Shown here: positions 7,271-29,852 of the stretch, piece after piece
Layout: the number at the start of each line of letters is the position of its first letter
Position numbering within the stretch: the first letter of the stretch is position 1
Source of the DNA: Anaerolineales bacterium
Lineage (GTDB): Bacteria > Chloroflexota > Anaerolineae > Anaerolineales > JABWBV01
NCBI GenBank assembly: GCA_035293165.1
Contig: DATDOR010000159.1
Coordinates: 1-29,852 of the forward strand
DNA length: 29,852 nucleotides
Direction: 5' to 3'
Position numbers and translations under genes: made by a program
Notes under the pieces: generated by a model
Seen by the model: only the letters and a program-made list of their open reading frames with translations
Told to the model about the DNA's origin: nothing
Databases searched by the model: none

Positions 7271-7294
7271 TTTTGTCTCCGAAAGGTTTGCTGT

Positions 7295-7302
7295 ATTATA
7301 AT
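7295..7302. promoter_or_regulatory. Overlapping back-to-back -10 boxes (TATAAT on both strands) in a 39-bp divergent intergenic gap
   Basis: ATTATAAT: plus-strand TATAAT at 7297-7302 and minus-strand TATAAT at 7300-7295. Confidence 0.55.
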
Positions 7303-7309
7303 GCACTGC

Positions 7310-11404: not shown

Positions 11405-11460
11405 GTAACTGCTCAAGCTAAGAAAGAAAGGGCTAATCCCCTTCCCAGTTGAGTAGTTAC
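11405..11460. repeat. Complete 56-bp inverted-repeat element (GTAACTRCTCAG family)
   Basis: GTAACTGCTCAA (11405-11416)...TTGAGTAGTTAC (11449-11460), 11/12 inverted match. The cyclase TAA stop (11457-11459) lies within the terminal repeat. Confidence 0.8.
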
Positions 11461-14400: not shown

Positions 14401-15530
14401 CCCCACGGTGCAGAGGCCATACACCGGGCCGCCAGATTGACCCCGCGCCCGTAACAGGCGTAATTGGTTTGAATTGCCGCGCCAATAAAGCCCGTATACA
14501 TGAACTGATAGGTCATTCCGCCACGAATAGGAAAGGGTAAAGCTGCCTGCAAGGCCAGGGAAAAATACATCGCTCGCTCCAGGTCGTTTTCGTAGCTGGT
14601 AGGGGTGCCCCAGTAGAGTAGGATATGGCAGCCTTTATCGCCAAACAGGACGCCATTTAAATAACCGCCGTATTGAGCTTGCAATACAAAGACCTTTTGC
14701 AGGGTGTTGTCCAGCCGCCCGGCAAGATGGCTTTCTGGCAGGTTGATCATGAGCGAGACAACCTGGCGAAACTCGCCTCGAACCGTCTGGTTGCGGATCG
14801 CGGATGGGATAAGCTGCGCGATGATTTCCGGGGTGATAGGGAAGGACTCCGTTGAAGGGGGAGGGGGTGCATCTTTCCGCGAAGGTTTCGTGGGGAATTT
14901 GAGGGCACGGATGCGGAAAAAATAGGGAGACCCAATTGTCTCAATCGTCACCGTTGCCCGAAGGATCTGCAACACTTTCGTGCTGATAATAATTTCTCCG
15001 GGCCGGGCCATGTTTTCGGCAATGGTGCTATCTTCGATGGCCGAACCATGAAAATAGTATGCAGCTACACGTTCGTGATCCCCCTTTTCGTCTGGCAATA
15101 CAATCCCCCACTCGACTTCTCCAAAGGCGATCCCCAGCTTGATCTCAAACCGGAAAGTTGCGAATGGTGTGGTCTGTTCAGGGTTTGCGAGCATGTGTCT
15201 ACGAATGCCCGACGCGGCGTTCACAGCATTCTGGCAAACCTGGAAGTGTTCTCCCGGAAACAGCGCGTAGAACGCATCCCCTGCAAACCCGGTGACAAAA
15301 CCGCCAAACGCGTAGATTTGTTCGATCAAGGGATCAAAAACAGCCTGAATCGTATCGGCCAGCACTTCGGCCCCAGCCGCGCCCCTTTCAAGCAGCGTTT
15401 CCGTTAATGCTGTAAAACCGGAAATATCAACGAACAAACTGGCAGCATCAAAATTCCCGTGCAATTCGTTTTCTGCCAGTTTGTCCAGGATAAATCGAGG
15501 AACAAGCGTCTGTGACCAATGTTCTTGCAC
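11457..15530 (-). CDS. Class III nucleotidyl cyclase (tandem domains, sAC-like) - STAND/AAA ATPase - TPR protein
   Basis: FVDISGFTALTE and FAGDA (metal Asp), second domain GDKG and VNLAAR, Walker A GEVGIGKS, Walker B VFVEDAQW, GNPFF, then many TPR-like helices. GTG start. Confidence 0.9.
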   Translation of the reverse strand: MQEHWSQTLVPRFILDKLAENELHGNFDAASLFVDISGFTALTETLLERGAAGAEVLADTIQAVFDPLIEQIYAFGGFVTGFAGDAFYALFPGEHFQVCQNAVNAASGIRRHMLANPEQTTPFATFRFEIKLGIAFGEVEWGIVLPDEKGDHERVAAYYFHGSAIEDSTIAENMARPGEIIISTKVLQILRATVTIETIGSPYFFRIRALKFPTKPSRKDAPPPPSTESFPITPEIIAQLIPSAIRNQTVRGEFRQVVSLMINLPESHLAGRLDNTLQKVFVLQAQYGGYLNGVLFGDKGCHILLYWGTPTSYENDLERAMYFSLALQAALPFPIRGGMTYQFMYTGFIGAAIQTNYACYGRGVNLAARCMASAPWGEVWVDEQVARRAPPSCELEWVGHLQFKGFGNELPVFRLSHRQKPKEVFYEGELVGREGELGELAGYLQPIFEGRFSGTTVIEGEVGIGKSRLVHTLQKRLPGCRFFTFQSDQTQNTSFAPIRSFLRQYFQQTSNAPSASTNQTHFMTQLRALIDRGDLQLQSELSLTYSCLGALIGLRWPGSHYEQLDPQGRFQNTLLGLKALLKAESLRQPLVVFVEDAQWLDEDSQLFFEYLTRNIETYPIGMLITTRARGDVLKNSAGPRQTLTLSPLTRPGLVQLAEETLHQPATPALIDFLYDRAEGNPFFAEQILLYLEENDLLIETETGLSLSDEIETEFLPVDVRAILTARLDSLTQEVKTVVQTASVLGREFEILVLAQMLQEDHDLMRKVDQASQAAIWSALNQLQYLFRHALLRDTAYNMQLLSRRRELHTLAAESLEKLQSAGISAHFGELAYHYEQAGFPVKALLYIEKAGDAAAYDYQNARALDYYSRAMTLAPAGDLATRFRLTLAMEKIYDLEGKRDSQKTACQTLQDLAQGLDDPLSQAEAALQFAYYYRAINDYPQTVKAARQCIALVEGRHPNLEASAYVRLGHTLWLQGHYDESKDQLERALELTRAKDFTDHKLVGEIWRNLGVVFWFLRNLEAAENRYRRSLNICRAPESRDMRGEAACINNLGILEQDRGNYHQAKAHYQEAIEVYQKAGDRQGEGNTLANLGGFAASRGDYPLAIETFQRVFSLVLETGDRHGQGHAQNHLGQIATSLGQYNTAKGYYDRALSIYTEINDHRGIGHIYLNSGYLALREEKLETALQQAEAAIAHVQKWRDPPTEGAAWLVAGQAYTCQRQYQKADEALAQAEHIFKENAATNVLMETYTAQAHLLMVQGKHSLALEKIAPVIQHLEPAWANPQDASEHRLFGTKHPFQVYWTCYQVLSSANDPRARMVLETARVLLQKIGNRIQDDALWHSYLENIRVHAEIMNKE

Positions 15531-17589: not shown

Positions 17590-18353
17590 ATGACCCCCAC
17601 CCTCCTCATCACCGGCGGCTCCGGCAACTTAGGCCGCAAACTCATCCCCCATCTGCTTAAAGAAGGCTATTCTGTCCGCGTTTCCAGCCGCAGCGACCGC
17701 AAACCCAACTTCTTTCCTGAAGCAGAATGGGTACGCGCTACCCTCGAAACCGGCGAAGGACTGGCCGAAGCGGTGCGCGGTGTTGATACGATCATCCACG
17801 CGGCGTCGGACGTGATGAACGCAAAAAAAATAGACGCAGTGTACCTGCTCCGGGAAGTGTTCGACTACGAATATGCCGAAATCGCCAAAATTGTAGACAA
17901 AACCGAAGACAACTGCCACCAGGTCTTCAGCCGTGCCAAACACTACATCACCCAACGTCGCCCGCGCTTTAAACCCAATCCCGAAGAGGAGCACCGTCTC
18001 GTCGAGCAGTTCCTGGAAACCCTCAATGGTGGAAACATGGATGACCTGCTCGAAATCCTGGCCCAAGACATCGTCGTCTACTCGGACGGGGACGGGAAAG
18101 CGTTTGCGGCCAAGAAACCGGTCGTGGGGATTGAACTGGTCGCCCGGTTCTTCTTCGGCATCGTCAAACAGGCTCCTCCCAGTTTGGAGGTGAGATTTGC
18201 CGGCTCGAATGGCCTGCCATCATCAACTTTATTGACGGGGTTCCCCACAGCGTGCTGGCGTTCCAGATTTTCGACGGGCGGATTCAGAATGTGTTTGCGG
18301 TGTTGAACCCGGATAAGTTGAGGAATGTTCGTTTTTACACGACAAACGACTAA
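17590..18353 (+). pseudogene. Chimeric remnant: 5' end of an NAD(P)-binding SDR gene joined in frame to the 3' part of an ECF41/SigJ-type sigma factor gene, with a later frameshift
   Basis: aa 1-82 ITGGSGNLG...VDTIIHAAS; from 17836 AVYLLREVFDYEYAEIA...NCHQVFSRAK (sigma region 4) and YSDGDGK (SnoaL-like, DGGG-type motif). The frame from 18219 gives IINFIDG...IQNVFAVLNPDKL to TAA at 18351-18353. Confidence 0.8.
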
Positions 18354-18361
18354 TCTTCCTG

Positions 18362-20176
18362 CTAGTTTGAAATGGGCCAGAGAAATAAGGCCATTAACAC
18401 GACGATGATCGCAACGAGAATCGTTAGAGGAGTACCTACTTTTAGAAAGTCGTTAAACTGATACCGCCCAGGGCCATATATCAATAAATTTCCGTGATGT
18501 CCAATGGGGGTTAGAAAGGAAACGACAGCTGCCATGGCTACGGCAATTACATAAGGTTGGGGAGATTGGTCGAGCGCCAAAGCGAGAGAAACCGCGACCG
18601 GCCCAAGCAAAGCAGTTGTCCCTGCATCAGACATCAACTGAGTGATAATTGCAGAGATGACAAATAAAATGAGTAAAACAAGAAAAGGGGGCCATCCAGC
18701 GACTATCGTTTGCAACCAACTGGCGATTAATTCAGATAGCCCGGTTTTCACCATAGCTAACCCCAAAGGAATCGCACCTGCAATAAATACATAAATGCGT
18801 GTATCTATGGATTTATATGCCTGTTGAAGCGATATACACCTGGTCAGGATCACGGCAGTTGCTCCCGCTAACAAAGCAATGTCCACCGGAAGCAGATTGA
18901 ATGCTGCCGCCAGAACGGTCACAATCATAATGCCCCCGACTAACCCGGCCTTATAGCGGCGCTGGGGTTCTCCATGAAATGGAGCGAGCATGAGAAAAGC
19001 ACGGGTTTCATTTAACCGGCTGATGGCTGCTTTATCTCCCATCAGCACCAGAACATCTCCGGGGCGCAATGCCACGCGGGAAAGTTCTGCGCGCATCCAC
19101 CCTTTTTGCCGCCATATTCCAACGACTAATAAACCATATCGCCGTCGAAAGTCTAATTTTGCCAGGGTTTGCCCCACCAGTTCAGAACTGGGGGCAACGA
19201 CTGCCTGCACAAGCTGTTTTTGACCATTATCATCGTCCTTCTCGGTGCCATTCCCGTTTTCCTGGTACTTTACGACAGGATGCAAGGCCATTCCTGGTGC
19301 TTCCTGGATGGCGGCCAATTCCTCCGGTGTCGTCCGTACCGTGAGCACATCTCCTTCCCGGACCTTTCGCGAGCGGAACGGTTTGGGTGTAATACGGCCG
19401 AACCGCAGCCACGTGACTACTTTAAAATGGTGGCTATCTTCATTCTCTATTTCCTCAATGGTTTTTCCGATAAAGTCCGAACCAGTCAAAACCAGGATTT
19501 CTGTGTAATATCCATCCAGACGAAAACTTTCCCCATCTATATCGCCCGCTGGCCGATCAGGGAGAAGGAAGCGGCCTGCCAGAAGCATAAACAGGATACC
19601 GGCAACGGATATAACCAACCCAATGGGAGCAATAGAAAATATCCCCAACCCCGATTGCCCGGCTTGTTTGAGCAGGCTATCCGCAATGAGGAAAGCGGGT
19701 GCGCCCAGGATGGTGATCGTGGTTCCCAGAGAAGCTGCAAAGGACATTGGCATGAGCAATCGAGAAGGAGAAATGTTTTGCTCCCGGCAAAGTTTAAGGG
19801 TGACGGGGAGCATTATGGCTGTAATCGTTACGTGATGTGTAAAGGCGGATAGGGCCGCGACGGCCAACATCATCACGACCATGACCCGGTTGTAGCCTTG
19901 CCCCGCAACTTGAACGATCCAATTCCCAATGTGGTCAGAGAGACCTGTAGCGTAGAAAGCCCCACTGAGAACAAAGATCGCCGCAATTACAATCGCCGGT
20001 TCACTACTGAACCCAGATAAAGCCTCTTCTGGCCCCAAAATTCCTGAAACCGCCAGGGCGACGATGATTATAACAGCGGTCAAATCCACCCGAATTTTTT
20101 CGGTTATTAGAAGGAAAAAAGCCGCGATGAGGATGAGAATCAATAATACCTGATGAAGATCAAGGGGAATGTTCAT
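18362..20176 (-). CDS. SLC13/DASS (CitMHS-like) permease with two TrkA-C domains
   Basis: TEKIRVDL, ALSGFSSE, MPMSFAASLGTTITILG, two soluble TrkA-C-like repeats, FLTPIGHHGNLLIYGPGRYQFNDFLKVG. Confidence 0.9.
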   Translation of the reverse strand: MNIPLDLHQVLLILILIAAFFLLITEKIRVDLTAVIIIVALAVSGILGPEEALSGFSSEPAIVIAAIFVLSGAFYATGLSDHIGNWIVQVAGQGYNRVMVVMMLAVAALSAFTHHVTITAIMLPVTLKLCREQNISPSRLLMPMSFAASLGTTITILGAPAFLIADSLLKQAGQSGLGIFSIAPIGLVISVAGILFMLLAGRFLLPDRPAGDIDGESFRLDGYYTEILVLTGSDFIGKTIEEIENEDSHHFKVVTWLRFGRITPKPFRSRKVREGDVLTVRTTPEELAAIQEAPGMALHPVVKYQENGNGTEKDDDNGQKQLVQAVVAPSSELVGQTLAKLDFRRRYGLLVVGIWRQKGWMRAELSRVALRPGDVLVLMGDKAAISRLNETRAFLMLAPFHGEPQRRYKAGLVGGIMIVTVLAAAFNLLPVDIALLAGATAVILTRCISLQQAYKSIDTRIYVFIAGAIPLGLAMVKTGLSELIASWLQTIVAGWPPFLVLLILFVISAIITQLMSDAGTTALLGPVAVSLALALDQSPQPYVIAVAMAAVVSFLTPIGHHGNLLIYGPGRYQFNDFLKVGTPLTILVAIIVVLMALFLWPISN

Positions 20177-20232
20177 AACGGTTTTCGCTTTATACAGTTT
20201 TCAGAAAAATTACTTGGGCTCGCAGTTACATT

Positions 20233-20946
20233 CTATACAGGCAAATTTACCGAAACACAGTAATTGAAATTCTCTGTTTCCTCAAATTTCATTTCCCCTT
20301 TATGCGCGAGCACAATCCGATGGGCTAACACGATTCCAAACCCAAGTCCCTTTCTCAGGCGAGGATGGTTTTCAAAATTCTGTTTCGTTGTTTCCAGAGT
20401 ATCATCAAGAAGAATGAATGGATTGATTTTAGGGCCAGAATCAAACAATCTAATCTTGACAACCCTGCCCTCCCACAGCGTTTCCACCATAATCTTCGAG
20501 GATGGCGGAGAACATAAGATACTGGCGTAAATGAGATTACCTAAGGCTTGAGCGAGTCGATCTGGATCAGCATAAATATCTGACAGATTTTCACTAAAAT
20601 GGAGTTTCCATTGGAGCTTTTTTTCTGGGGCAATTTCTTGCCAGGTAGCCAAAATGGTTGTTAACCATTTAGAAAGATTGATTTTACGGCGGCTAAGTTT
20701 GATTTTCCCCGTTCGAATGCTTTGTAACAGAATCCAGTTTTCAAATAGATAGCGAAGGTAACGAAGTTCATTATCCATTCCGCCAAGCAGGTCACGGCGC
20801 AGTTCAGGATCCTGAACTGCGCCGTTCAATAGGGCCTGGTTTGCAGAAAGCGTTCCCCCCAATGAACTGCCAATATCTGTAACAAGGCTGGGTAACAACA
20901 ATTTTTCCATGTTTTCCAGGAATGTATTCACGTCAACCTGCCCCAT
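20233..20946 (-). CDS. Histidine-kinase-like protein lacking the phospho-acceptor His (pseudo-kinase)
   Basis: HisKA-like helix LVTDIGSSLGG...GAVQDPELRRDLLGGMDNE; ADPDRLAQALGNL; degenerate boxes DSGPKI and GLGFGIV...IVLAHKG. AAGGAG RBS. Confidence 0.75.
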   Translation of the reverse strand: MGQVDVNTFLENMEKLLLPSLVTDIGSSLGGTLSANQALLNGAVQDPELRRDLLGGMDNELRYLRYLFENWILLQSIRTGKIKLSRRKINLSKWLTTILATWQEIAPEKKLQWKLHFSENLSDIYADPDRLAQALGNLIYASILCSPPSSKIMVETLWEGRVVKIRLFDSGPKINPFILLDDTLETTKQNFENHPRLRKGLGFGIVLAHRIVLAHKGEMKFEETENFNYCVSVNLPV

Positions 20947-20989
20947 TTGATCATTGGTCGTAACTCCTTTTGAAAGCTAATCCTAACAA

Positions 20990-21280
20990 CTACCGTCTCA
21001 GGTATATAACTCTACGCCGGAGCAGAAGGCTGGCAATTCCCGTAAAGATGGCCGAACCGAGGGTTGCCCATACGATGGGAATCGTTTGACCTTCAACGGT
21101 GACAGGAAGCAGGAGGGGTAATCCAAAAGATTGGGCCATCCATTGGCCGATAATCGCACCAATGAAGCCCACGACCATGGAGACCAGACATCCCCCGAGC
21201 GTGTATCCTGCAATTGCCTGTCCTAAAGCCCCAACGACGGCAACGATCAAAAGGTAGATGAGAAATCCAACGAGTGTCAT
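20990..21280 (-). CDS. GlsB/YeaQ/YmgE-family (transglycosylase-associated) small membrane protein
   Basis: Three hydrophobic Gly-rich helices, GCLVSMVVGFIGAIIG; GGAGG RBS before ATG 21280. Confidence 0.85.
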   Translation of the reverse strand: MTLVGFLIYLLIVAVVGALGQAIAGYTLGGCLVSMVVGFIGAIIGQWMAQSFGLPLLLPVTVEGQTIPIVWATLGSAIFTGIASLLLRRRVIYLRR

Positions 21281-21307
21281 ATTGCACCTCCAATGCGAAT
21301 TTACATT

Positions 21308-21373
21308 AGGGTAGCAAAGATTTTCGTCGGATGCCTTAAGTTTGGCTTTCCGCAACCTTAAGGAAGGCTTAAG
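21308..21373 (-). promoter_or_regulatory. Regulated promoter P1: phased CTTAAG boxes plus extended -10
   Basis: CTTAAG at 21368, 21357 and 21335 (11 and 22 bp steps), 21-nt spacer, TGc-TACCCT at 21316-21308. Confidence 0.75.
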
Positions 21374-21412
21374 GGAATCGTCTGATGTGCGCTGAACTCT
21401 CGAAAAAAGTTC

Positions 21413-21462
21413 GGTTCTTTGGGAAACGGCGGGGAGGCAACCACGGCAAATCCCAAAGAGCC
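21413..21462. mobile_element. 50-bp MITE, copy 2
   Basis: Same terminal inverted repeats as copy 1; exact 8-bp direct repeat AAAAGTTC at 21405-21412 and 21463-21470. Confidence 0.88.
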
Positions 21463-21478
21463 AAAAGTTCTATTCAGT

Positions 21479-22180
21479 TTATGAGTCAAAGTGTGGAATG
21501 AATTTGTACCCTTTCCCCCGTACCGTGATGATCCGCTCAGGATATTTTGGATCATCTTCAATTTTTTCTCGTAACCAACGGATATGGACATAGACAACCT
21601 GAGGTTGCCCTTCATATTCTGCGCCCCATACCTGATTGATGAGGGAGTCGACCGAAACGACTCGTTCGGGTTCTATGGCCAACGCGTGGAGCAAATCAAA
21701 CTCCCGAGGCGATAAGTTTAGCTCTTCTCCGCGCAAGGTTGCAACAAAACGGATTGGGTTAATCTCTAAATCTCCTACGGAGATGGGGGTATGGATGGCT
21801 GCTTCAGCGGGGTTTTTGATGCGTCGAAGAACCGCTCGGATCCGGGCAATCAAAATGGGCAAATCAAATGGTTTGGTGATGTAATCATCTGCGCCAAGCT
21901 CCAACCCTAGAGCCTCGTCGAATTCACGGCGTCGCGCCGTTAAGAAGATGACGGGAAATGTATGTTGGGTTTTTAATTTTCGTAAAGCTTCGAGGCCATC
22001 CATCCCTGGCAGACCAATATCCATGAGAACCAGGTCTGGTGGATCACGCCGGACGATCTCCAGGGCATCTTCGGCATTTGAGGAGGAAGTGACTTGATAG
22101 CCAGCTTGTTCCAGATTAAATGCAAGACTGCGGCGTAAGAGTTTTTCATCTTCGACCAATAAGATATGATCAGCCATCAT
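21479..22180 (-). CDS. OmpR/PhoB-family response regulator (REC plus winged helix)
   Basis: LLVEDE, phospho-Asp in DLVLMDIGLP, FLTA, ADDYITKPF, LSPREFDLL, VYVHIRWLREKIE, ITVRGKGY. Confidence 0.95.
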   Translation of the reverse strand: MMADHILLVEDEKLLRRSLAFNLEQAGYQVTSSSNAEDALEIVRRDPPDLVLMDIGLPGMDGLEALRKLKTQHTFPVIFLTARRREFDEALGLELGADDYITKPFDLPILIARIRAVLRRIKNPAEAAIHTPISVGDLEINPIRFVATLRGEELNLSPREFDLLHALAIEPERVVSVDSLINQVWGAEYEGQPQVVYVHIRWLREKIEDDPKYPERIITVRGKGYKFIPHFDS

Positions 22181-23495
22181 TCACATCCTTTGTTGGGGGA
22201 AATAGAGGCAGGATGAAGGTAAATGTTGCTCCTTTTCCCGGATTATTTCTGGCCCAAATTTCTCCCCCATGGGTCTGAACAGCCATCCGACAAAAAGCCA
22301 GTCCTAATCCACTTCCGCTTTCTTCCTGTAATCCGGCGGAAAATTTTTCAAAAAGACGGGTTTCAATTTCAGGAGGAATCCCTGTGCCCGAATCTTTGAT
22401 AGAAATCAACACAAACTGATCCTGCGGAAGATGGGAGACTTCCCTTTCCAAATTCCCCTTCGTATCCAGGCATTTTGCACTCATCATCACGCGTCCCCCC
22501 TCTGGCGTAAACTTGAGGGCATTATCAATCAGGTTTTGTAACACGCGCTCTATTAACCGGATATCCCCTTCAATGGGTGGAATATCGCGGGAGATACGCC
22601 TGGATAGATGTATGTTTTTTTCCTGAGCCAATGGAGTCTGCGCCTTAATCACTTTTTGAACCAACCTTGAAATTGAAAATGGCTTAGGCTCAAGCGGTAC
22701 TCCTTCCCGTTCTAGTTTATGTACATCCAAAATATTATCCACTAACCGCGTCATTTTTCTTGCCCCAAGATAAGAGAACTCGATCATTGCAGATTGGTAA
22801 GGGGACAAGTTTTTCGTCTCATTGTAGAGCAACCCACTCAATGAGGACCGGATCGTCGCAAGTGGGTTGCGTAAATCATGAATGAGCGCATGGACCAACT
22901 CATCCCGCAAATTTTCCAGTTTTTGGATTTCCGCGATTTTCTGTTCAAGCGTTTTGTCTTTTTCTCGTAAGGCATCGAGAACTTGAACAAGTTCCTGATT
23001 TTGCTGGAGAATTTCTTCCAGCAAGGAGAGGGGCATCTCACTTGTGAGCGTCTCACGCCATTCCTTCACATCCTCTTTTGTCACATAGGATGTCCAGGAA
23101 GGAAACGGTTGCGCAAGCACAACCCCAATAGGTTTTCCTTCTTCAGCCTGAATTGAGAATCGGGTTGCAAGATTTTGTGTGCTACCCAGCCACTTTAGTA
23201 AATCTGGTCTGGATAAGGGGGGCTGTTGGCGTTGATCAACGGACGGAATGAAGTTTTTGGACTCTCGAAGGGTAACTTGAAGCCATTGTTTTTCCTCCTC
23301 ATCATGGATGTCGTAAGAAATATGAACACATTGACAGTAATAGTGCAGGCTTTGTGCGATTTGAGAGACTGCCGTAGTAAGTCGAGCATGATTCCCGATG
23401 GACAATTTGACCAGACGGGCAAGTTTTTGTGTCCATTGGCGAGCCAATTGAACCTCTTGCTGATTTTGGATCCATAGTTCTCCAATGTGGATCAT
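22170..23495 (-). CDS. Cytoplasmic sensor histidine kinase with a degenerate RsbT-like N-terminal domain
   Basis: H-box IHDLRNPL, N-box NLIDNALKF, DSGTGI, LFEKF, GSGLGLAF; no TM segment. N-terminus EVQLARQ...LARLVKL....ARLTTAVSQIA resembles RsbT. Confidence 0.88.
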   Translation of the reverse strand: MIHIGELWIQNQQEVQLARQWTQKLARLVKLSIGNHARLTTAVSQIAQSLHYYCQCVHISYDIHDEEEKQWLQVTLRESKNFIPSVDQRQQPPLSRPDLLKWLGSTQNLATRFSIQAEEGKPIGVVLAQPFPSWTSYVTKEDVKEWRETLTSEMPLSLLEEILQQNQELVQVLDALREKDKTLEQKIAEIQKLENLRDELVHALIHDLRNPLATIRSSLSGLLYNETKNLSPYQSAMIEFSYLGARKMTRLVDNILDVHKLEREGVPLEPKPFSISRLVQKVIKAQTPLAQEKNIHLSRRISRDIPPIEGDIRLIERVLQNLIDNALKFTPEGGRVMMSAKCLDTKGNLEREVSHLPQDQFVLISIKDSGTGIPPEIETRLFEKFSAGLQEESGSGLGLAFCRMAVQTHGGEIWARNNPGKGATFTFILPLFPPTKDVNDG

Positions 23496-23501
23496 ATTCT
23501 A

Positions 23502-23510
23502 AATATAACA
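23502..23510 (-). promoter_or_regulatory. Extended -10 placed for a leaderless kinase-regulator transcript
   Basis: Minus strand TG-t-TATATT, 6 nt, then ATG 23495; no SD sequence. Confidence 0.5.
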
Positions 23511-23593
23511 TATCAATTCGGTTATTGAAACAACGAGTTTTCAATGAAAAAGCAACGGAAATCCCTTAAGGTTGTTTTGGTCAACAGTAGTAT

Positions 23594-23624
23594 GTACACC
23601 CCCAAACACACCTTTTTTTCGGGA
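23594..23624. repeat. Right arm only of the CCCGAAAAAAGG hairpin repeat
   Basis: gtacacccccaaacacacctttttttcggga matches the arms at 15632-15670 and 29779-29802. Confidence 0.65.
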
Positions 23625-23664
23625 ATCTCGTTGTTCACACTTTCGTTGACGAATACAGAAATCC

Positions 23665-23730
23665 CTTAAGGTCGCCTTAAAGTGAATAAAAGGGTGAGTT
23701 AAGGACATGCAAAGTTGAACTTGTTATCAT
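23665..23730 (+). promoter_or_regulatory. Regulated promoter P2: phased CTTAAG boxes plus extended -10
   Basis: CTTAAG 23665, CTTAAA 23676, GTTAAG 23698, 21-nt spacer, TGt-TATCAT at 23722-23730. Confidence 0.75.
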
Positions 23731-23763
23731 CAGGATCAAAACCCGAAAGCAGATGCAAAATTC

Positions 23764-23853
23764 CAAGTGCCAGGGCTGAGTTGGGAAATGCTTAAAAGTC
23801 CTGTGGCGAAGAATGCCCTAGCCTCCTCTTCTACATAGCAGCCCTGGCACTTG
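23764..23853 (+). other. Long-range hairpin in the predicted 5' leader
   Basis: Perfect 15-bp inverted repeat caagtgccagggctg (23764-23778) / cagccctggcacttg (23839-23853), followed by a T6 run. Confidence 0.6.
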
Positions 23854-23913
23854 TTTTTTCGAAATGCTGAATTCGAGAATCAATCCCTATTCAGTAACAC
23901 CAAGGAGATAAAC

Positions 23914-24465
23914 ATGGATACCACGACTTTAATTATTACACTTGCAACCATCGTCATTGTCATCGTCGGATTACCTCTGGCATTTGTATTTATCCGCAGG
24001 CAACGGACGCAGCAGTTACAAAAAGCGTTCGGCCCTGAATATGACCGCATGAGCCATGAAATGGGGAACCAACGGCAAGCGGAGAAAGAACTAGAAGAAC
24101 GGCGAAAAAGAGTTGAGTCTTTACAACTACGGACACTAACCACGGATGAGAGTCAACGTTTTCAAAGGGACTGGATTCAAACACAAACCGAGTTCGTAGA
24201 TAACCCAAGTAGGGCAGTAGAAAAAGCTCATCACCTGGTCGTCGAAGCCCTTTTAGCGCGCGGCTATCCGAACAGCAAATATGAAGATCGGGTCGCGGAT
24301 ATCTCTGTGGATTATCCTGAATTGGTTTCAAATTATCGTAATGCCCGCGCCATCAGGAAGCATGACCAACAAAACGGAGCAACCACGGACGAACTCATGT
24401 TGTCGTTTACCCAATATCGTAGTTTGTTTGAAGAGTTGATACAGCCTGAAGAAAATGGAAGTTGA
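23914..24465 (+). CDS. Conserved hypothetical membrane-anchored protein
   Basis: AAGGAG RBS; N-terminal TM helix, then FGPEYDR, FVDNP..AV..A..LV....L.ARGYP, ADISVDYP, Y..LFEEL, a pattern I recognise from an uncharacterised family. Confidence 0.8.
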   Translation: MDTTTLIITLATIVIVIVGLPLAFVFIRRQRTQQLQKAFGPEYDRMSHEMGNQRQAEKELEERRKRVESLQLRTLTTDESQRFQRDWIQTQTEFVDNPSRAVEKAHHLVVEALLARGYPNSKYEDRVADISVDYPELVSNYRNARAIRKHDQQNGATTDELMLSFTQYRSLFEELIQPEENGS

Positions 24466-24492
24466 TTTCCATTTCTTCGAAGGAGCTATTGA

Positions 24493-25347
24493 ATGTACAA
24501 ATTTAAAGTTCTCTCCAAATCAAATTGGGAAGGCAAGGATGATTTTTACGCGATTCAAACTTGTGCGATGTCTGTTCGATGTCAGCAGAAACCAACAAAC
24601 GAAGATTTCGTCTTTCACCGGGCAACTCAGATGCCCAGTGGACATCCCATTGCCTTGTTGGTCGTGTGTGATGGCATGGGCGGCTACCAGGTTGGAAGTT
24701 TTGCAAGCGAGTTGGCCACGCATATTGTGACGACAGAGATTGGGAAATTATTTCCCCATGAAGACTTCCTCCATACCCATATCGAACAGCCCACTATTCC
24801 CAGGGCTAGTAAATTGCAAACCTGGCTAAAGGAAACTGTCCAAGAGGCCAATCGCCTGATCTTTGAATACGCAAGTAACCAGCCGGAAATCAGGCATTCC
24901 GGTACCCGGATGACACTCGCTTTAATACAATGCAGGACAGCTTATATTGCCCATGTTGGAGACACGAGGGCGTATTTGTGGCGAAATTTTGAATTAACCC
25001 AAATCACAGAGGATCATTCCATCGCAGCCGAGTTGGAGAAAGGGGGGATTCTGGAACCAACTAAAGCTCTAAATCATCCCTTCCGAAAAATTCTTTTCCG
25101 GTCAGTTGGAACCCAACCAGAAGTCAAGCCAGAAATCTACACCATCTCCCTACGGCCTGGGGACAAATTGATGCTTTGCTCGGATGGACTGTGGAACGCG
25201 TTTGATGATGTTCATCCCTTAGCGGATATTTTGGAAAATGATTTTCACCCAAACAATCTTAGTGCCATGCTCATTGATGAAGCACGAGTCCGAAATAACC
25301 GGGATGATATTAGTGTCGCACTGGCATGTGTAAATACCCTTTCTTGA
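24493..25347 (+). CDS. PP2C/PPM-family Ser/Thr protein phosphatase (PrpC/Stp-like)
   Basis: NED, VVCDGMGG, AHVGDTRAY, TEDHS, LMLCSDGLW, RDDISV; AAGGAG RBS. Confidence 0.92.
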   Translation: MYKFKVLSKSNWEGKDDFYAIQTCAMSVRCQQKPTNEDFVFHRATQMPSGHPIALLVVCDGMGGYQVGSFASELATHIVTTEIGKLFPHEDFLHTHIEQPTIPRASKLQTWLKETVQEANRLIFEYASNQPEIRHSGTRMTLALIQCRTAYIAHVGDTRAYLWRNFELTQITEDHSIAAELEKGGILEPTKALNHPFRKILFRSVGTQPEVKPEIYTISLRPGDKLMLCSDGLWNAFDDVHPLADILENDFHPNNLSAMLIDEARVRNNRDDISVALACVNTLS

Positions 25348-25374
25348 GATTGAACGATATGGAGGATAAGGTCG

Positions 25375-27999
25375 ATGACAACATACTCGAACGATGATCA
25401 AATGCCCTTTCTTGCAGAGCTCGATATGCAAGAGTGGTTCGTTACTCCTGGCAAGTCCACCTACATTCCTGTACAGTTGGCTAACCAGGGGACCGCCACA
25501 AAAATTTTACAGTTGTCAGTCAGCGGGATCCCAGCCCATTGGTTGGAAATGGTTCCCGAAAAAGTGGTTGTCTTGCCAGGCGAGCAAAAAGAGGTCGCGT
25601 TGGTTGTCCAACTGCCCGATGCCCCCATGACGAAGACAGGACGCTACCCCATTCAAGTCACGGTGATGCAAGCGGAGAACGACAGCGAAAAAGTCGTTTT
25701 AAAAGGCACTTTGACAGTAGCAGCGTATGAAGTCCAGGGCAGGATTGCCATCCTGATGGACGCTCTCCACTTTTCAGTCGCCCCCGGGGCTGCGGTTATC
25801 GTGAACATTAAATTGATCAACCAGGGTCTTGAAGAAGATACATTCCAGTTGGCAGTGGATGGCATACCGGCAGCCTGGGTTTCCACCGCAACTCCATCGC
25901 TACGATTACGTCCTGGAGAACAGAAACCTGTTTCCATCCTTATTCGGCCAGCGCGTCACTTTCAAAGTCGGGCGGGACGGCATCCGTTCAAGTTGCGGAT
26001 CGTCAGTCAACTGAACCCTTCTGAAGCTGCAGTGGTGGATTGTGTCTTAACCATTGAGGCTTACTCCGAATTTAAGAGTCAACTCATACCCGAAAAAGTG
26101 CTAATAGGGGAAAACGTTCAGATGGTCATTGAGAACTCAGGGAATATCCCTGATTCCTATTCCTTGACCTGGGCCAGCACAAACCAGGACTTGGGATTTG
26201 AATGGACGGGTGATTATCTTTCAGAAAATAACCCCCAAATAGACGAAGAAGGCGCTGTAAAAGTACGAATCCCACCTGGAGATAAGGCTGTACTCCATTT
26301 CCAGCCCAAACTTCAAACCGGGCTTAATCTGATAGGCAATCTTGTTTATCCATTTAAAGTCAATGTTGAGGCGACGAATAGCGTTGTTCAGTCCCACGCA
26401 GGGGAAGTGGTCAGCCGGGGATTGATCCCCGTATGGGTTGTTCAGGTGGGAATAATGGTGCTACTGGGCACAATGTGTTTGGCTGGTTTTTTCCTCGCTC
26501 GCGGTAACCTGATTTCTACTCAAGCCACGGAAACAGCCCTTGCGGCTATAGCCGGTTCTACCCAAACCGTCGAATTCTCCGCATCTCAAACCGCGGCTGC
26601 AACCCAAACCGCGTCCGCCAATATGACTCAAGCTGCTGAAGCTGGCCAAGAGGATTCAGATGGCGATGGATTGACTAATGATCAAGAAGCGGAATTCGGA
26701 ACCGATCCGTTGCTTGCAGATACGGATAACGATGGATTGTTCGATGGTGTTGAAATTGCCGGGATGACAAATCCATTGAATCCCGACACAGATGGGGATA
26801 CCCTGACGGATGGCGACGAGGTGCAGCGTGGTACGGATCCCCGTAGTCAGGACACGGATACAGATTCACTTTCCGATGGGCAAGAAATCCAACTTGGAAC
26901 AAATCCGCTCAACCCCGACTCGGATGCCGATGGTCTTTCGGATGGAAGTGAAACACCCCCCTGTCCTGATCCACTCAACCCGGACTCCGATAATGACGGT
27001 CTCATTGATGGGCAAGATTTTGAACCTTGCGATCCCAATAATCCATCTTTGACGGAGACAGCTATTGCTGCGAGCCCCACAGAAACGCCTGTCCCTCCTG
27101 CTGAAACCCCGACAGAAGCTCCAACCGATGTGCCTACCGAGTTACCCACTGAGCCCCTGGAACCAACTTCCACTTCTGAACCACAAATTCCTCCATTGGA
27201 TGGGGTCATGGCTTTGATCTCCACTCGGGATGGTAACCCGGAAATTTACACTTTGCACCTTGCTGATAACAGTTTGACGCGCTTAACCATTGATCCTGCG
27301 GTAGAAGCCCAACCATCCTGGTCGCCAGATGGCAGTCAGATTGCTTTCGCTACCAATCGGGATGGTAATTTTGAAGTCTATTTGATGAATGCGGATGGAA
27401 CTGGTTTGGTAAACCTGACCAATAATGGCAGTGATGATTTTGACCCGGCCTGGTCACCGGACGGAACACAAATCGCTTTCGCTTCGAATCGCGATGGGAA
27501 CAATGAGATCTACATCATGAATGTGGATGGAACCGATCCACATAATGTGACTAGCAACCCTGCGGATGATTCTCAGCCGAGCTGGTTCATTAAAGGTGGA
27601 CTACTTCCAACCGTCCGAATCGCATTCACGTCGGATCGAGACGGGAATCAAGAGATTTACTCGATGAATCCGAGTGGGGTAGATCAAAATAATCTGTCCA
27701 ATAACCCGGCAGATGATCATTCACCGGCTGGATTATCCGATCTTGGATTAATCATTTTCACCACGAATCGAGATGGGAATCAAGAAGTTTATGTCATGTC
27801 GGATGATGGCTCATCTCAATCAAATTTAACACACCAACCTGCTGAGGATTGGGCACCGACATGGGCTAATGCAGAATGGGTCGCATTTGTTAGCACTCGA
27901 GATGGAAATCAGGAGATTTATATTGTAAATGGTGATGAGCAGTATAACCTTACTGCCAACCCTGCAGACGATTACGATCCAGGCTGGTTTACGCCATAA
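25375..27999 (+). CDS. Large single-pass membrane protein: Ig-like domains, TM helix, Ca-binding (TSP3-like) repeats, PT linker, TolB-like PD40 propeller
   Basis: Three beta-rich N-terminal repeats (N.G...D.F/Y.L); TM VWVVQVGIMVLLGTMCLAGFFLA; six D.D.DGL.D..E repeats; repeated P.WSPDG.QIAF.S/TNRDGN.EIY units. Confidence 0.82.
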   Translation: MTTYSNDDQMPFLAELDMQEWFVTPGKSTYIPVQLANQGTATKILQLSVSGIPAHWLEMVPEKVVVLPGEQKEVALVVQLPDAPMTKTGRYPIQVTVMQAENDSEKVVLKGTLTVAAYEVQGRIAILMDALHFSVAPGAAVIVNIKLINQGLEEDTFQLAVDGIPAAWVSTATPSLRLRPGEQKPVSILIRPARHFQSRAGRHPFKLRIVSQLNPSEAAVVDCVLTIEAYSEFKSQLIPEKVLIGENVQMVIENSGNIPDSYSLTWASTNQDLGFEWTGDYLSENNPQIDEEGAVKVRIPPGDKAVLHFQPKLQTGLNLIGNLVYPFKVNVEATNSVVQSHAGEVVSRGLIPVWVVQVGIMVLLGTMCLAGFFLARGNLISTQATETALAAIAGSTQTVEFSASQTAAATQTASANMTQAAEAGQEDSDGDGLTNDQEAEFGTDPLLADTDNDGLFDGVEIAGMTNPLNPDTDGDTLTDGDEVQRGTDPRSQDTDTDSLSDGQEIQLGTNPLNPDSDADGLSDGSETPPCPDPLNPDSDNDGLIDGQDFEPCDPNNPSLTETAIAASPTETPVPPAETPTEAPTDVPTELPTEPLEPTSTSEPQIPPLDGVMALISTRDGNPEIYTLHLADNSLTRLTIDPAVEAQPSWSPDGSQIAFATNRDGNFEVYLMNADGTGLVNLTNNGSDDFDPAWSPDGTQIAFASNRDGNNEIYIMNVDGTDPHNVTSNPADDSQPSWFIKGGLLPTVRIAFTSDRDGNQEIYSMNPSGVDQNNLSNNPADDHSPAGLSDLGLIIFTTNRDGNQEVYVMSDDGSSQSNLTHQPAEDWAPTWANAEWVAFVSTRDGNQEIYIVNGDEQYNLTANPADDYDPGWFTP
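26653..27020 (+). repeat. Coding repeats: six Asp-rich calcium-binding motifs
   Basis: DSDGDGLTNDQE, DTDNDGLFDGVE, DTDGDTLTDGDE, DTDTDSLSDGQE, DSDADGLSDGSE, DSDNDGLIDGQD; end coordinate approximate. Confidence 0.8.
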
Positions 28000-28024
28000 A
28001 TACTTGGAGGAAGGAGAAATAAAA

Positions 28025-28132
28025 ATGAAAATCCCCCGCAAACTTGGAACTTTATTGCTTGCGATATGGCTGATCCTGATCGGATTATCGGGATTTGTGA
28101 GCCTGGGTGATCTGGCCAGGATTAAGGAGTAA
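28025..28132 (+). CDS. Very small hydrophobic protein (35 aa)
   Basis: Strong GGAGGAAGGAG RBS; MKIPRKLGTLLLAIWLILIGLSGFVSLGDLARIKE*; its 3' end contains the RBS of the next gene. Confidence 0.6.
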   Translation: MKIPRKLGTLLLAIWLILIGLSGFVSLGDLARIKE

Positions 28133-28137
28133 CTTTT

Positions 28138-29232
28138 GTGAATCAATACCTTCAGTCCAACCTGGACCTCGCCCAAATTTTAGAAAGCCACCGGGGAGAG
28201 TGCCACGTGATTGTGTTGCATGACTTCCCCGATCCGGATGCCATCGCCTGTGCCTTTGCACACCGACAGATCAGCAAAGAATTCGAGATTGAAGCGGATA
28301 TTATATACACCGGGGAGATCAGTCACCAGCAGAACCTGGCCCTGGTCAAATTACTGGATAACGAATTGTTTGTGTATGAGGAGTCGATGGACATGGGGAA
28401 ATATCAAGCGGCGATTTTTTTAGATCATCAAGGAGCAACGGTTGAGGAGGTTATTTCTGCATTGGAAAAGGCGAATGTTCCCATCCTTCTTGTTGTGGAT
28501 CATCATAAACCTTATGATCGTTTGACCCCAAAATTCAGTGAAATCATTGAAACTGGGTCAACTGCCACGATATATGCCTATTTCCTGGAAAGAGGGGTGA
28601 TAGAACTGGATAAAACGGATACGAACCTTACCTTAATGGCAACATCTCTTTTGCACGGTATCCTGACAGATACAGGTGGTTTTATTCAGGCAGATGCCCA
28701 GGATTTTCATGCGGCAGCCTTCTTAAGTCATTACCGGGATGCAGATATTCTGAACCAAATTATGAGTCAGGAACGAACCAAACATGTCCTGGATGTCATT
28801 CAAAGCGCCCTGGAAAATCGGGAAACTATCGAGAATTTCTCTGTTGCAGGGATTGGGTACGTCCGAGCAGGGGATCGTGATGTTATTCCGCAGGCTGCAG
28901 ATTTTCTCTTGACGGAAGAAAATGTCCATACGGTGGTTGTCTATGGGATAGTAAAAGATGATGAGCATGAGGAGACTTTGGTAGGGTCTTTACGGACATC
29001 CAAATTTATCCTGGATCCGGATAAATTTATTAAGGACACTTTCGGCAAAGGTGTTGATGGTATGTATTTCGGCGGGGGGCGCAAATCTGCAGGCGGGTTT
29101 GCCATCCCGGTCGGGTTTTTATCCAATGGCTCCAGTGAAGATTTCCAGAAACTAAAATGGAAAACTTATGACGCACAAATCAAGCACAAGATTTACGCGA
29201 AAATCGGTGTCAACGATGAGAATGATTTTTGA
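28138..29232 (+). CDS. DHH-family phosphoesterase (NrnA-like oligoribonuclease / pAp phosphatase superfamily)
   Basis: HDFPDPDAI, FLDH, VVDHH, GSTATI, GILTDT, C-terminal GGGRKSAGG; GTG start with AAGGAG RBS. Confidence 0.9.
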   Translation: MNQYLQSNLDLAQILESHRGECHVIVLHDFPDPDAIACAFAHRQISKEFEIEADIIYTGEISHQQNLALVKLLDNELFVYEESMDMGKYQAAIFLDHQGATVEEVISALEKANVPILLVVDHHKPYDRLTPKFSEIIETGSTATIYAYFLERGVIELDKTDTNLTLMATSLLHGILTDTGGFIQADAQDFHAAAFLSHYRDADILNQIMSQERTKHVLDVIQSALENRETIENFSVAGIGYVRAGDRDVIPQAADFLLTEENVHTVVVYGIVKDDEHEETLVGSLRTSKFILDPDKFIKDTFGKGVDGMYFGGGRKSAGGFAIPVGFLSNGSSEDFQKLKWKTYDAQIKHKIYAKIGVNDENDF

Positions 29233-29272
29233 CGATATCCGATAAAAACGGAAGAATCGAACTCTAAATAAC

Positions 29273-29318
29273 ACAGACCACAAATAGGCTCGCCAGGACA
29301 ACCTGATTTGTGGTCTGT
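29273..29318. terminator. Hairpin between convergent genes, candidate terminator
   Basis: 13-bp perfect inverted repeat acagaccacaaat / atttgtggtctgt followed by a short T run on the plus strand; the 20-nt loop is long for a classic terminator. Confidence 0.5.
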
Positions 29319-29371
29319 TTTGTTACATCTTCTGATAAAAATGTATGATGGTTCCTTTGTTATTTTCCCGT

Positions 29372-29530
29372 TTAGTTGCCCAAACAACGGCTTAAGACAG
29401 CGCCAAAGATCATGATCAGGAGGATGAAACCTAGAAACCTTCTTCGCCGGAATCTTCTAAGTCGGTTAGGCCATAACGGTGAGGCACCTAATAACAACAA
29501 TGCTAAAACGATGAGTAATATGATGCCCAT
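29372..29530 (-). CDS. Small two-helix membrane protein, DUF3309-like (52 aa)
   Basis: AAGGAG RBS; MGIILLIVLALLLLGASPLWPN resembles the DUF3309 start (ILLI.L.LLL.GA.P.WP), followed by an Arg-rich loop and a second helix. Confidence 0.65.
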   Translation of the reverse strand: MGIILLIVLALLLLGASPLWPNRLRRFRRRRFLGFILLIMIFGAVLSRCLGN

Positions 29531-29632
29531 AAAAATTCTCCTTTTTTCCCTGGGGGTCAACATTCCAAGGGGTCCAGTTATAGTGGCGGTGCAAGGCAAT
29601 TTCCTTCTCGCGGGAACTGGTGCTACTTCTAA

Positions 29633-29698
29633 AGTATATCAGCTTACTTTTGCTTCGTCCTTAAGAAGTCCCGCGTTTTTCTTTAAGATGACCTTAAA
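29633..29698 (-). promoter_or_regulatory. Regulated promoter P3: phased CTTAAG boxes plus -10
   Basis: On the minus strand TTTAAG (29698-29693), CTTAAA (29687-29682), CTTAAG (29665-29660), 21-nt spacer, TATACT (29638-29633). Confidence 0.75.
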
Positions 29699-29719
29699 CC
29701 TCCATTTAATAGAAAAAAT

Positions 29720-29831
29720 GTAACTACTCAGCCGGCGAGGGGATTAGCCCGAAAAAAAGGTATGCGTGGGGGTGTAGACCCCACGCATACCTTTTTTTCG
29801 GGAAACCTTCTCTCTTAGCCTGAGCAGTTAC
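29720..29831. repeat. Complete 112-bp composite element: 56-bp GTAACTRCTCAG element with a 56-bp hairpin insert
   Basis: GTAACTACTCAG...CTGAGCAGTTAC ends; flanks align with the reverse complement of 11405-11460; 24-bp perfect stem 29748-29771 / 29779-29802 with a 7-nt loop. Confidence 0.85.
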
Positions 29832-29852
29832 GAACAAATGATGATATATCCC

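Follow-up and report, generated by a model that had tools for sequence, protein, structure and literature searches.

A probable compact two-component regulon with a retained pseudo-histidine kinase in an Anaerolineales genome: a candidate local membrane or envelope stress module

We analysed contig C159 of an uncultured Anaerolineales bacterium from soil, a stretch of 29,852 nt that was studied whole and is called the window below; the assembly to which it belongs comprises 4.58 Mb in 759 contigs and is 85.5% complete. Between positions 18362 and 29698, the window carries eleven genes in four units, at the centre of which lie genes for a soluble histidine kinase (HK) and an OmpR/PhoB-family response regulator (RR). 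On balance, these genes probably form a compact, conserved two-component regulon that serves a local membrane or envelope stress response and includes feedback by a pseudo-histidine kinase. The original prediction of a self-contained module, run by an OmpR-type pair and comprising three co-regulated promoters, is supported by binding-site-like repeats that are unique to this region of the assembly and by synteny, and every gene that it named was found in its place.

Promoter architecture and conservation of the module

The features on which this reading depends are as follows.

21308-21373, minus strand: promoter P1; the first gene behind it encodes the GlsB-type protein
23665-23730, plus strand: promoter P2, divergent from the kinase gene
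29633-29698, minus strand: promoter P3, upstream of a DUF3309-like open reading frame (ORF)
22170-23495, minus strand: soluble HK, 441 aa (RsbT/RsbW-like domain, coiled coil, HisKA and HATPase_c)
21479-22180, minus strand: OmpR/PhoB-family RR, 233 aa (Pfam Response_reg and Trans_reg_C)
20990-21280, minus strand: GlsB/YeaQ/YmgE-type small membrane protein, 96 aa, three transmembrane (TM) segments (Pfam Transgly_assoc, PF04226)
20233-20946, minus strand: pseudo-histidine kinase, 237 aa, with DHp and CA domains and no sensor (HATPase_c only)
23502-23510, minus strand: extended -10 element TGTTATATT of the kinase gene, 6 nt before the kinase ATG
23564-23571, no strand assigned: lone palindromic CCTTAAGG, some 70 bp ahead of the kinase gene
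23758-23857, plus strand: P2 leader helix, AAAUUCCAAGUGCCAGGGCUG ... CAGCCCUGGCACUUGUUUU

P1, P2 and P3 can be superimposed: (C)TTAAGG-type repeats stand at 0, +11 and +33 and are followed, after 20 nt, by TAnnnT at +60. The units of P1 at 0, +11, +22 and +33 are CTTAAG, CTTAAGG, (GGAAAGC) and CTTAAGG, with the -10 element TACCCT at +60. The corresponding units are CTTAAGG, CTTAAAG, (TAAAAGG) and GTTAAGG in P2, with TG-n-TATCAT at +60, and TTTAAGG, CTTAAAG, (ACGCGGG) and CTTAAGG in P3, with the -10 element TATACT at +60. Promoters were compared across 17 sites in all, from this assembly and from other genomes or contigs. Information content was restricted to the repeats, the A positions +24 and +26, and TGnTAnnnT; the signal at +24/+26 points to a degenerate fourth half-site at +22, which gives each promoter four 11-bp units. 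Head-to-tail repeats in 11-bp phase that end at about -33, combined with a poor -35 element, are the standard arrangement for PhoB/OmpR-type activation. The four-unit layout is the one to be expected of two winged-helix regulator dimers in contact with RNA polymerase at such a promoter.

CCTTAAG occurred nine times in the window, against an expectation of 2.7 ± 1.7. The full strict pattern had three matches in the whole assembly, even when two mismatches were allowed. This first pattern missed sites whose proximal repeat is TTAAAG and was replaced by a loose layout pattern together with a position weight matrix (PWM). The loose pattern gave three matches here, four in the related genome G002 and four in the related genome G005, whereas the reversed control gave none in any of the three. 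The PWM was trained on 14 sites, all from other genomes or contigs, with this assembly's own sites left out, and was used to scan the whole assembly. P1 (55.4 bits), P2 (53.8 bits) and P3 (32.9 bits) were its top three sites, all within 8.4 kb, and the next-best site (12.4 bits) compared with a maximum of 12.9 bits in 2 Mb of shuffled sequence. Because the next-best site equals the shuffled background, the predicted regulon appears to be strictly local. These scans confirmed the three promoters of one layout that had been predicted.

The kinase gene and the RR gene share 11 nt. This contig and the related loci L058, L061 and L063 all conserve ATGTTATATTTAG-N3-ATG ahead of the kinase gene, and the position of the conserved TGTTATATT, 6 nt before the ATG, indicates that the kinase-regulator transcript is probably leaderless. 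No conserved repeat box was found at the kinase promoter in these four loci, and the promoter sequence suggests that the transcript may be RR-independent. Autoregulation through the lone CCTTAAGG was considered and rejected, as this box is not conserved in L058, L061 or L063; it is probably without function.

Conservation was examined at nine loci: this contig, G002, G005 and six looked-up relatives of the N-terminal part of the kinase, of which 11 in total were found in a collection of 5.8 billion proteins. The kinase, RR and pseudo-kinase genes occurred in that order at all nine, usually with the GlsB gene between the last two. At the loci for which DNA could be read, a site equivalent to P1 follows the RR gene in L058-L063, G002 and G005, and one equivalent to P2 diverges from the kinase gene in L058-L063 and G005; the layout is thereby represented in G002, G005 and three metagenome lineages. 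The divergent operon usually opens with a PP2C phosphatase gene, followed by genes for a large PD40 protein and a DHH protein; in L058, L061, L063 and two further loci, the PP2C orthologue stands directly behind P2 as its first gene. Orthologues of GlsB (G002, G005, L061 and L063) and of the PD40 protein (G002, G005, L058 and L061) lie behind promoters of the same layout, a DHH orthologue in L058 shares 72% identity, and a permease orthologue follows the pseudo-kinase gene in L061 and L063. The synteny check was therefore passed for the core, with the GlsB, PP2C, PD40, SLC13 and DHH genes recurring around it, and the box-type repeat architecture co-occurs with this RR clade. Kinase orthologues were present in two of six genomes of the same family (G005, 53% identity; G002, 49%), and near-identical DNA is present in soil and sediment metagenomes; all the sequencing runs listed were DNA runs, with no RNA run among them.

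The relatives also differ from one another. The G002 regulon is spread over three contigs; a promoter of this layout stands in front of each of its genes for the GlsB orthologue, for a PRC-barrel and a YeaQ-type protein, and for the large PD40 protein, of which only the start is present. On contig C162 of G005 (locus L036), an 86-aa ORF at 4731-4991 covers the first 65 positions of the CitMHS profile, with a same-layout promoter upstream and the PD40 gene downstream, and looks like a remnant of the SLC13 permease. At 5599-7675 of the same locus, a same-layout promoter beside the kinase gene leads to genes for a YGGT-like membrane protein, a HisKA_3 kinase and a NarL-type regulator, and at a further locus (P0012) the divergent operon consists of PP2C, HisKA_3 kinase, NarL regulator and PRC-barrel genes. 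The HisKA_3 and NarL genes in these two operons suggest that the module may control a second two-component system in some lineages.

The pseudo-kinase, the regulator and the soluble kinase

Residues 10-237 of the pseudo-kinase aligned with full-length membrane HKs of 480-520 aa at 31-38% identity, with E values down to 7e-40. Alignment with active relatives showed that the H-box His is replaced by Thr, that the N-box Asn is replaced by Ser and that the F box is lost. Six orthologues have T, T, S, T, P and P at the His position, and the N-box Asn is lost in all of them. Their reading frames are nevertheless intact, even where overall identity falls to 35%, and conservation is highest in DHp. 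Homology to DHp and CA, loss of the phospho-acceptor His and of the N-box Asn, and a kept frame together bear out the earlier identification of this gene as one for a pseudo-histidine kinase.

The module RR is part of an Anaerolineales family that is widespread and whose genes normally precede that of a TM-HAMP kinase. The parent full-length HKs have a TM-HAMP-HisKA-HATPase_c architecture and are encoded directly after RRs that are 55-67% identical to the module RR. In the RR tree, the module RRs form one clade (100/99) within a clade (95/99) that also holds the RRs of the parent HKs. No parent-type full-length HK was found in the three genomes carrying the module, and G003, a family member without the module, has one. 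In G086 and G062, the parent HK gene is followed by a site of the same layout (WTAAG repeats) and then by genes for HtrA-like and S41 proteases. The same-layout site was present at only three of the eight parent-type loci examined. Homology and gene order show the pseudo-kinase to be a truncated and, by its motifs, catalytically dead descendant of a parent TM-HAMP kinase, still placed after the RR gene. The simplest reading is that the module derives from an RR-HK envelope-stress pair, that the old kinase lost its sensor and catalysis and came under the RR promoter, and that a soluble kinase of another lineage took over from the parent membrane kinase.

When two pseudo-kinase chains were modelled together with the RR receiver, the fold model scored 0.70, against 0.03 for the best control, and placed the chains in a canonical DHp/alpha1 interface. 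Of 80 solved complexes, 58 reach this score, as do 2 of 110 mismatched pairs. The model thus indicates a likeness to known kinase-regulator complexes, which falls short of binding by this pair.

The regulator matched Pfam Response_reg (3.5e-30) and Trans_reg_C (2.1e-27). Among 59 relatives, D11, D54 and K103 are invariant and T81 is nearly so. A receiver with a phospho-acceptor pocket joined to Trans_reg_C, with a HisKA/HATPase_c kinase encoded alongside, marks the pair as OmpR/PhoB-type. The kinase has intact catalytic boxes (IHDLRNPL, QNLIDNALKFT, DSGTGI and GSGLGLA), and no TM segment was found in it by the TM scan. Its domains follow the order GHKL domain (residues 1 to about 150), coiled coil, HisKA and HATPase_c.

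A Pfam scan of the N-terminal domain of the kinase (residues 1-195, E<=5) returned nothing meaningful. An AlphaFold (AF2) model built from 14 sequences had a predicted local distance difference test (pLDDT) value of 86, and a Foldseek search with it returned SpoIIAB, RsbW or UsfX as its top 16 matches (E values of 9e-5 to 4e-3). A profile of residues 1-152 matched 271 proteins at E<=1e-3 among 1.84 billion representatives (best E value, 2.6e-15); the best matches were kinases of the form HATPase_c_2-[PAS]-HisKA-HATPase_c-[REC-Hpt], an architecture confirmed by Pfam. By profile and fold search, the module kinase belongs to this HATPase_c_2-HisKA class, and the RsbT-like domain of the original prediction is upheld. 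Where kinases of the RsbW/SpoIIAB fold have their catalytic Glu and Asn, however, this domain reads TAVSQIAQS. It is thus not an active Ser kinase of the RsbW/RsbT type, as Glu and Asn are lost and Pfam HATPase_c_2 does not see it, and the model and sequence describe the predicted input domain as a decayed RsbT/RsbW fold.

Three distant kinase relatives were looked up. Two are encoded directly behind genes for RsbR (RsbRD_N plus STAS), RsbS, RsbT and a HATPase_c_2-SpoIIE phosphatase, whereas the third lies on a contig of 3.9 kb and is preceded by just one of these, the gene for a SpoIIE-type phosphatase. No RsbR/S/T or SpoIIE-type gene was found next to the module, on this contig or at the other module loci. 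From its RsbT/RsbW-like N-terminal domain and from kin behind RsbR-RsbS-RsbT, we infer that the module kinase belongs to a class of stressosome-output kinases, in which it stands decayed and orphaned. Two metagenome contigs (L074 and L076) encode RsbR-RsbS-RsbT, a HATPase_c_2-SpoIIE phosphatase, a HATPase_c_2-HisKA kinase and receiver or GGDEF-EAL proteins, so that both output proteins, phosphatase and kinase, have an RsbT-like N-terminal domain. We know of no functional study of this operon architecture.

Target genes, the P2 leader and neighbouring elements

The remaining genes of the module are listed here.

18362-20176, minus strand: SLC13/DASS-type permease, 604 aa (CitMHS plus two TrkA_C/RCK_C domains, Na_sulph_symp; Pfam and NCBIfam)
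23911-24465, plus strand: 184-aa protein with one N-terminal TM helix and a helical domain (no Pfam match)
24493-25347, plus strand: PP2C Ser/Thr phosphatase, 284 aa, Stp1/IreP type (Pfam and NCBIfam)
25375-27999, plus strand: 874-aa Ig/TSP3/PD40 protein (Pfam and NCBIfam)
28026-28133, plus strand: ORF for a 35-aa hydrophobic peptide (from sequence)
28138-29232, plus strand: DHH/DHHA1 phosphoesterase, 364 aa (Pfam)
29372-29533, minus strand: 53-aa two-TM ORF, DUF3309-like, behind P3 (weak Pfam match)

Gene spacing fits the proposed P1 and P2 operons: genes of the putative P2 operon lie 4-27 nt apart, and the gaps of the putative P1 operon measure 43 and 56 nt. No hairpin was seen ahead of the permease gene in the 56-nt gap that separates it from the pseudo-kinase gene, and the permease gene is putatively the last of the P1 operon. 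TM segments were found in seven of the eleven products by the TM scan.

The GlsB protein belongs to its family by a match to PF04226 of 26.6 bits (gathering cut-off, 25.3). The 53-aa ORF is a weak match to DUF3309 (PF11752), at 18.5 bits against a cut-off of 22.3, with an E value of 0.0023 over 46 of 50 profile positions. Eleven hydrophobic segments were counted in the permease. The 874-aa protein is bitopic, with three Ig-like domains, a TM helix at residues 355-373, TSP3 Ca-binding repeats, a Pro/Thr linker and a TolB-like PD40 propeller; no signal peptide was found in it. DHH motifs are present in the DHH protein, in which the DHHA1 motif is GGGR instead of GGGH; its NCBIfam matches were only weak, and it fits no characterised subfamily. 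The 184-aa protein, which is predicted to be specific to this lineage of the module, belongs to an uncharacterised family ('secreted protein') that is commonest in Actinomycetota (Atlas clusters: score 0.95, TM 0.9). NCBIfam was uninformative for the DHH protein, the 184-aa protein, GlsB and the DUF3309-like ORF.

The leader of the P2 transcript is predicted to be structured (minimum free energy z-score, -3.4). Its helix is long-range, with conserved flanks and a variable interior, and followed every P2-type promoter examined. Across five sequences, none of its 14 pairs was broken and six had compensatory changes. The U-rich tail was good in three loci and poor in two; the helix may terminate the transcript, stabilise it or be processed. 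An Rfam scan of 18000-29852 at relaxed thresholds gave only chance-level microRNA-type matches and left the helix unmatched. A dispersed repeat was rejected as its origin, as its 5' arm is unique in the genome. The P3 leader showed no significant structure (z = +0.5).

Several further elements lie between the genes. A hairpin with arms GGCTCTTTGGGA / TCCCAAAGAACC occupies 21413-21462, between the RR stop codon and P1. Another, CAGACCACAAAT ... ATTTGTGGTCTG followed by TTTTG (29260-29330), lies between the convergent DHH and DUF3309-like genes and is probably a terminator common to both. Palindromic elements of the form CCCGAAAAAAAGG...CCTTTTTTTCGGG occur at 23600-23640, between the kinase promoter and P2, and at 29735-29810, just past P3, as well as at 1330-1390 and 4965-5010 of L063; they have the look of bidirectional terminators and are found repeatedly between genes, both in this genome and in a relative. 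The genes to the left of 18362 are unrelated to the module and encode an ABC ATPase, peptidases and a large AAA/TPR protein. Among the upstream sequences, 9466-10980 encodes a second PD40-repeat protein (504 aa) and 11457-15530 a 1357-aa protein with cyclase-like, AAA_16 and TPR domains; no motif ties either to the module.

Proposed mechanism, alternatives and known systems

The soluble HK, with its intact motifs, and the RR would be expressed from their own extended -10 promoter, which lacks regulator boxes. A signal may enter by protein-protein contact at the decayed RsbT/RsbW-like domain of the kinase, and the cue would be membrane or envelope stress, possibly osmotic stress or desiccation, and not general stress. 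Two phosphorylated RR dimers would then bind the repeats, at roughly -72 to -33, and activate P1, P2 and P3 in the class II manner of PhoB/OmpR. Judged by position, the P1 outputs would be GlsB, the His-less pseudo-kinase and probably the DASS permease; those of P2 would be the TM protein, the Stp1-type PP2C, the bitopic TolB-like protein, the 35-aa peptide and the DHH phosphoesterase; and that of P3 would be the DUF3309-like peptide. Once induced, the pseudo-kinase may still dock on the RR receiver and damp or shape the response.

Judged by gene content, the module most likely answers membrane or envelope stress locally and with induced feedback. RR kin that precede an HtrA-type protease gene and the seven membrane products out of eleven point to membrane or envelope stress, and the three local promoters, the Stp1-type PP2C and the missing STAS gene point away from general stress. 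A more specific version can be offered only tentatively: the module may represent a kinase replacement caught in a stable intermediate, in which an envelope-stress RR passed to a soluble kinase derived from stressosome output, while the old membrane kinase persists under the RR promoter as a dead DHp-CA protein that, once induced, would act on the RR as a decoy, a phosphatase-like brake or an insulator. The RsbT-like domain of the kinase might also listen to a STAS protein of the genome and so tie partner switching to OmpR-type output.

Several points weigh against this interpretation. The kind of stress is read solely from gene content and the parent system. A genome of the same genus (G001, 94% complete) has no kinase orthologue, and no counterpart of the 184-aa protein, of the 35-aa peptide or of the DUF3309-like ORF was found at the other module loci, which lie on short contigs. 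The window stops 154 bp past P3, and more sites or genes could be missing from an assembly as incomplete and fragmented as this one. The complex score, for which our own alignments were used, may mirror only the generic, well-known HK-RR interface. Extended -10 promoters might also fire without an activator, which makes repression possible.

The original prediction had described a general-stress-like regulon, and the module could accordingly stand in for a sigmaB- or EcfG-type general stress response, with its PP2C and RsbT-like parts acting as in partner switching. The families involved speak for this, since GlsB, the DUF3309-like protein and the PRC-barrel and YeaQ-type proteins of G002 all belong to families usually named stress proteins, and the kinase has an RsbT/RsbW-like input domain with distant kin in RsbRST operons. 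The stress-output part of the prediction stands to that extent, as GlsB is present and G002 adds a PRC-barrel protein, a classic stress family. A general regulon would have many dispersed promoters, however, and this 85.5%-complete assembly has three, all local. The PP2C is not a partner-switching part of the RsbU, RsbX or SpoIIE type; it is closest to Stp1/IreP (NCBIfam Stp1_PP2C_phos, 186.7 bits, under the 230-bit cut-off of that model), matches PF00481 at 1.2e-16 against 4.4e-06 for SpoIIE, the latter over its C-terminal third, and has the metal-binding motifs. A STAS antagonist, which sigmaB-type partner switching needs, is also missing: none of the 11 PF01740 (STAS) matches in the whole assembly is on C159, and no STAS gene appears in the gene tables of related loci. 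The loss of the catalytic Glu and Asn from the RsbT-like domain, and an HtrA-type protease as the ancestral target of the RR family, argue in the same direction. The suggested search for RsbR/S/T genes elsewhere found no RsbRD_N domain in the 85.5%-complete assembly, but it did find at least four ordinary STAS/HATPase_c_2 pairs on other contigs, which gives no reason to see the module as a replacement for a sigma-factor pathway. We regard the stand-in as quite unlikely; as judged from its genes and sites, the module is neither a general stress regulon nor a partner-switching system.

The remaining alternatives concern single parts of the proposed mechanism. The repeats could be operators at which the RR, perhaps unphosphorylated, represses three constitutive extended -10 promoters by covering the -35 position; the proximal repeat does overlap that position, and all the promoters have a TGn extended -10 able to work without a -35. 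The phasing, the end point of the repeats and the poor -35 are nevertheless standard for activation in this family, and the fixed distance to the -10 across the 17 sites suggests contact with RNA polymerase over occlusion, so that repression seems very unlikely. It is scarcely credible that the boxes belong to another regulator or sigma factor encoded elsewhere and lie beside the kinase-RR pair by coincidence. Although the link between RR and boxes comes from sequence evidence and not from direct binding, the boxes occurred, in every genome examined, only beside this RR clade or in the same genomes as it, RR relatives have a related site of the same layout (WTAAG repeats) beside their own operon, tandem 11-bp repeats suit winged-helix regulators, and the -10 elements are sigma-70-like and not ECF-like. 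A somewhat stronger alternative, though still an unlikely one, is that the pseudo-kinase acts on the kinase, as a DHp heterodimer like RetS on GacS or as a scaffold like DivL, or that it is a decaying gene without a role. Known pseudo-kinases such as DivL do regulate another kinase (PMC9430884), and here DHp keeps the sequence of the parent family and has not converged on the present kinase. Its descent from a kinase that partnered this RR family and its place on the RR receiver domain in the fold model favour the RR as partner instead. Decay is made less likely by a frame that is intact at every locus and by conservation that is highest in DHp in all six orthologues, even at 35% identity.

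The reading of a local two-component regulon with pseudo-kinase feedback does not overturn current understanding; it describes an instructive variant of ordinary two-component signalling. To our knowledge, few signalling pathways have been characterised in Chloroflexota, and here kinase, RR, site architecture and all targets are delimited within 11 kb, so that the regulon could be cloned whole as a possible test bed. What we find most interesting is the apparent replacement of a kinase with the old one kept as a dead, RR-induced accessory, together with the orphaned stressosome-type input domain. Such a change of sensor bears on the evolution of specificity and insulation in two-component pathways, and, if true, a superseded cognate kinase kept as a feedback element would be a new way to build feedback and insulation into them. 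The module also extends a little-studied class of kinases with RsbT/RsbW input to a version outside the stressosome operon, and its structured leader is a further conserved element.

MprAB-pepD of mycobacteria, CssRS-htrA of Bacillus and CpxAR-degP are envelope or secretion stress systems with an adjoining protease target. The module resembles them in its OmpR-family RR and its small, largely local regulon, and its RR kin in Anaerolineales resemble them further in an order of RR, TM-HAMP kinase, in some cases a same-layout site, and HtrA-like and S41 proteases. Unlike these systems, the module has no HtrA gene, its membrane kinase is represented by a predicted dead DHp-CA protein, and phosphorylation would fall to a soluble kinase of another lineage; its targets are small membrane proteins, a permease, a TolB-like protein, a PP2C and a DHH enzyme. 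For stressosome output modules, the two-component genes behind the Vibrio vulnificus stressosome offer a comparison (PMC9237108). The module kinase shares with stressosome-output kinases the order of RsbT/RsbW-like domain, coiled coil, HisKA and HATPase_c, and differs from them in a domain too decayed for Pfam, in TAVSQIAQS in place of Glu and Asn, and in the lack of adjacent RsbR/S/T or SpoIIE-type genes.

As a catalytically dead DHp-CA protein, the pseudo-kinase is comparable to DivL (PMC9430884) and to RetS, which acts on GacS. Its place under the RR's own promoter gives the induced-feedback wiring of SaeP and SaeQ in SaeRS (PMC5083920) and of MgrB in PhoPQ (PMC7808668), and SaeR itself binds direct GTTAA repeats with an 11-bp period (PMC5083920). 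Unlike all of these, the putative feedback protein of the module is a relic of the former cognate kinase of the RR, and not a small membrane protein or a sensor-bearing paralogue. Fusion of two-component with partner-switching parts is also found in TciR of Vogesella (PMC12826045) and in SypE of Vibrio fischeri; there the RsbW-like domain is the output of an RR, whereas in the module it serves a kinase as input domain and no longer has its catalytic residues.

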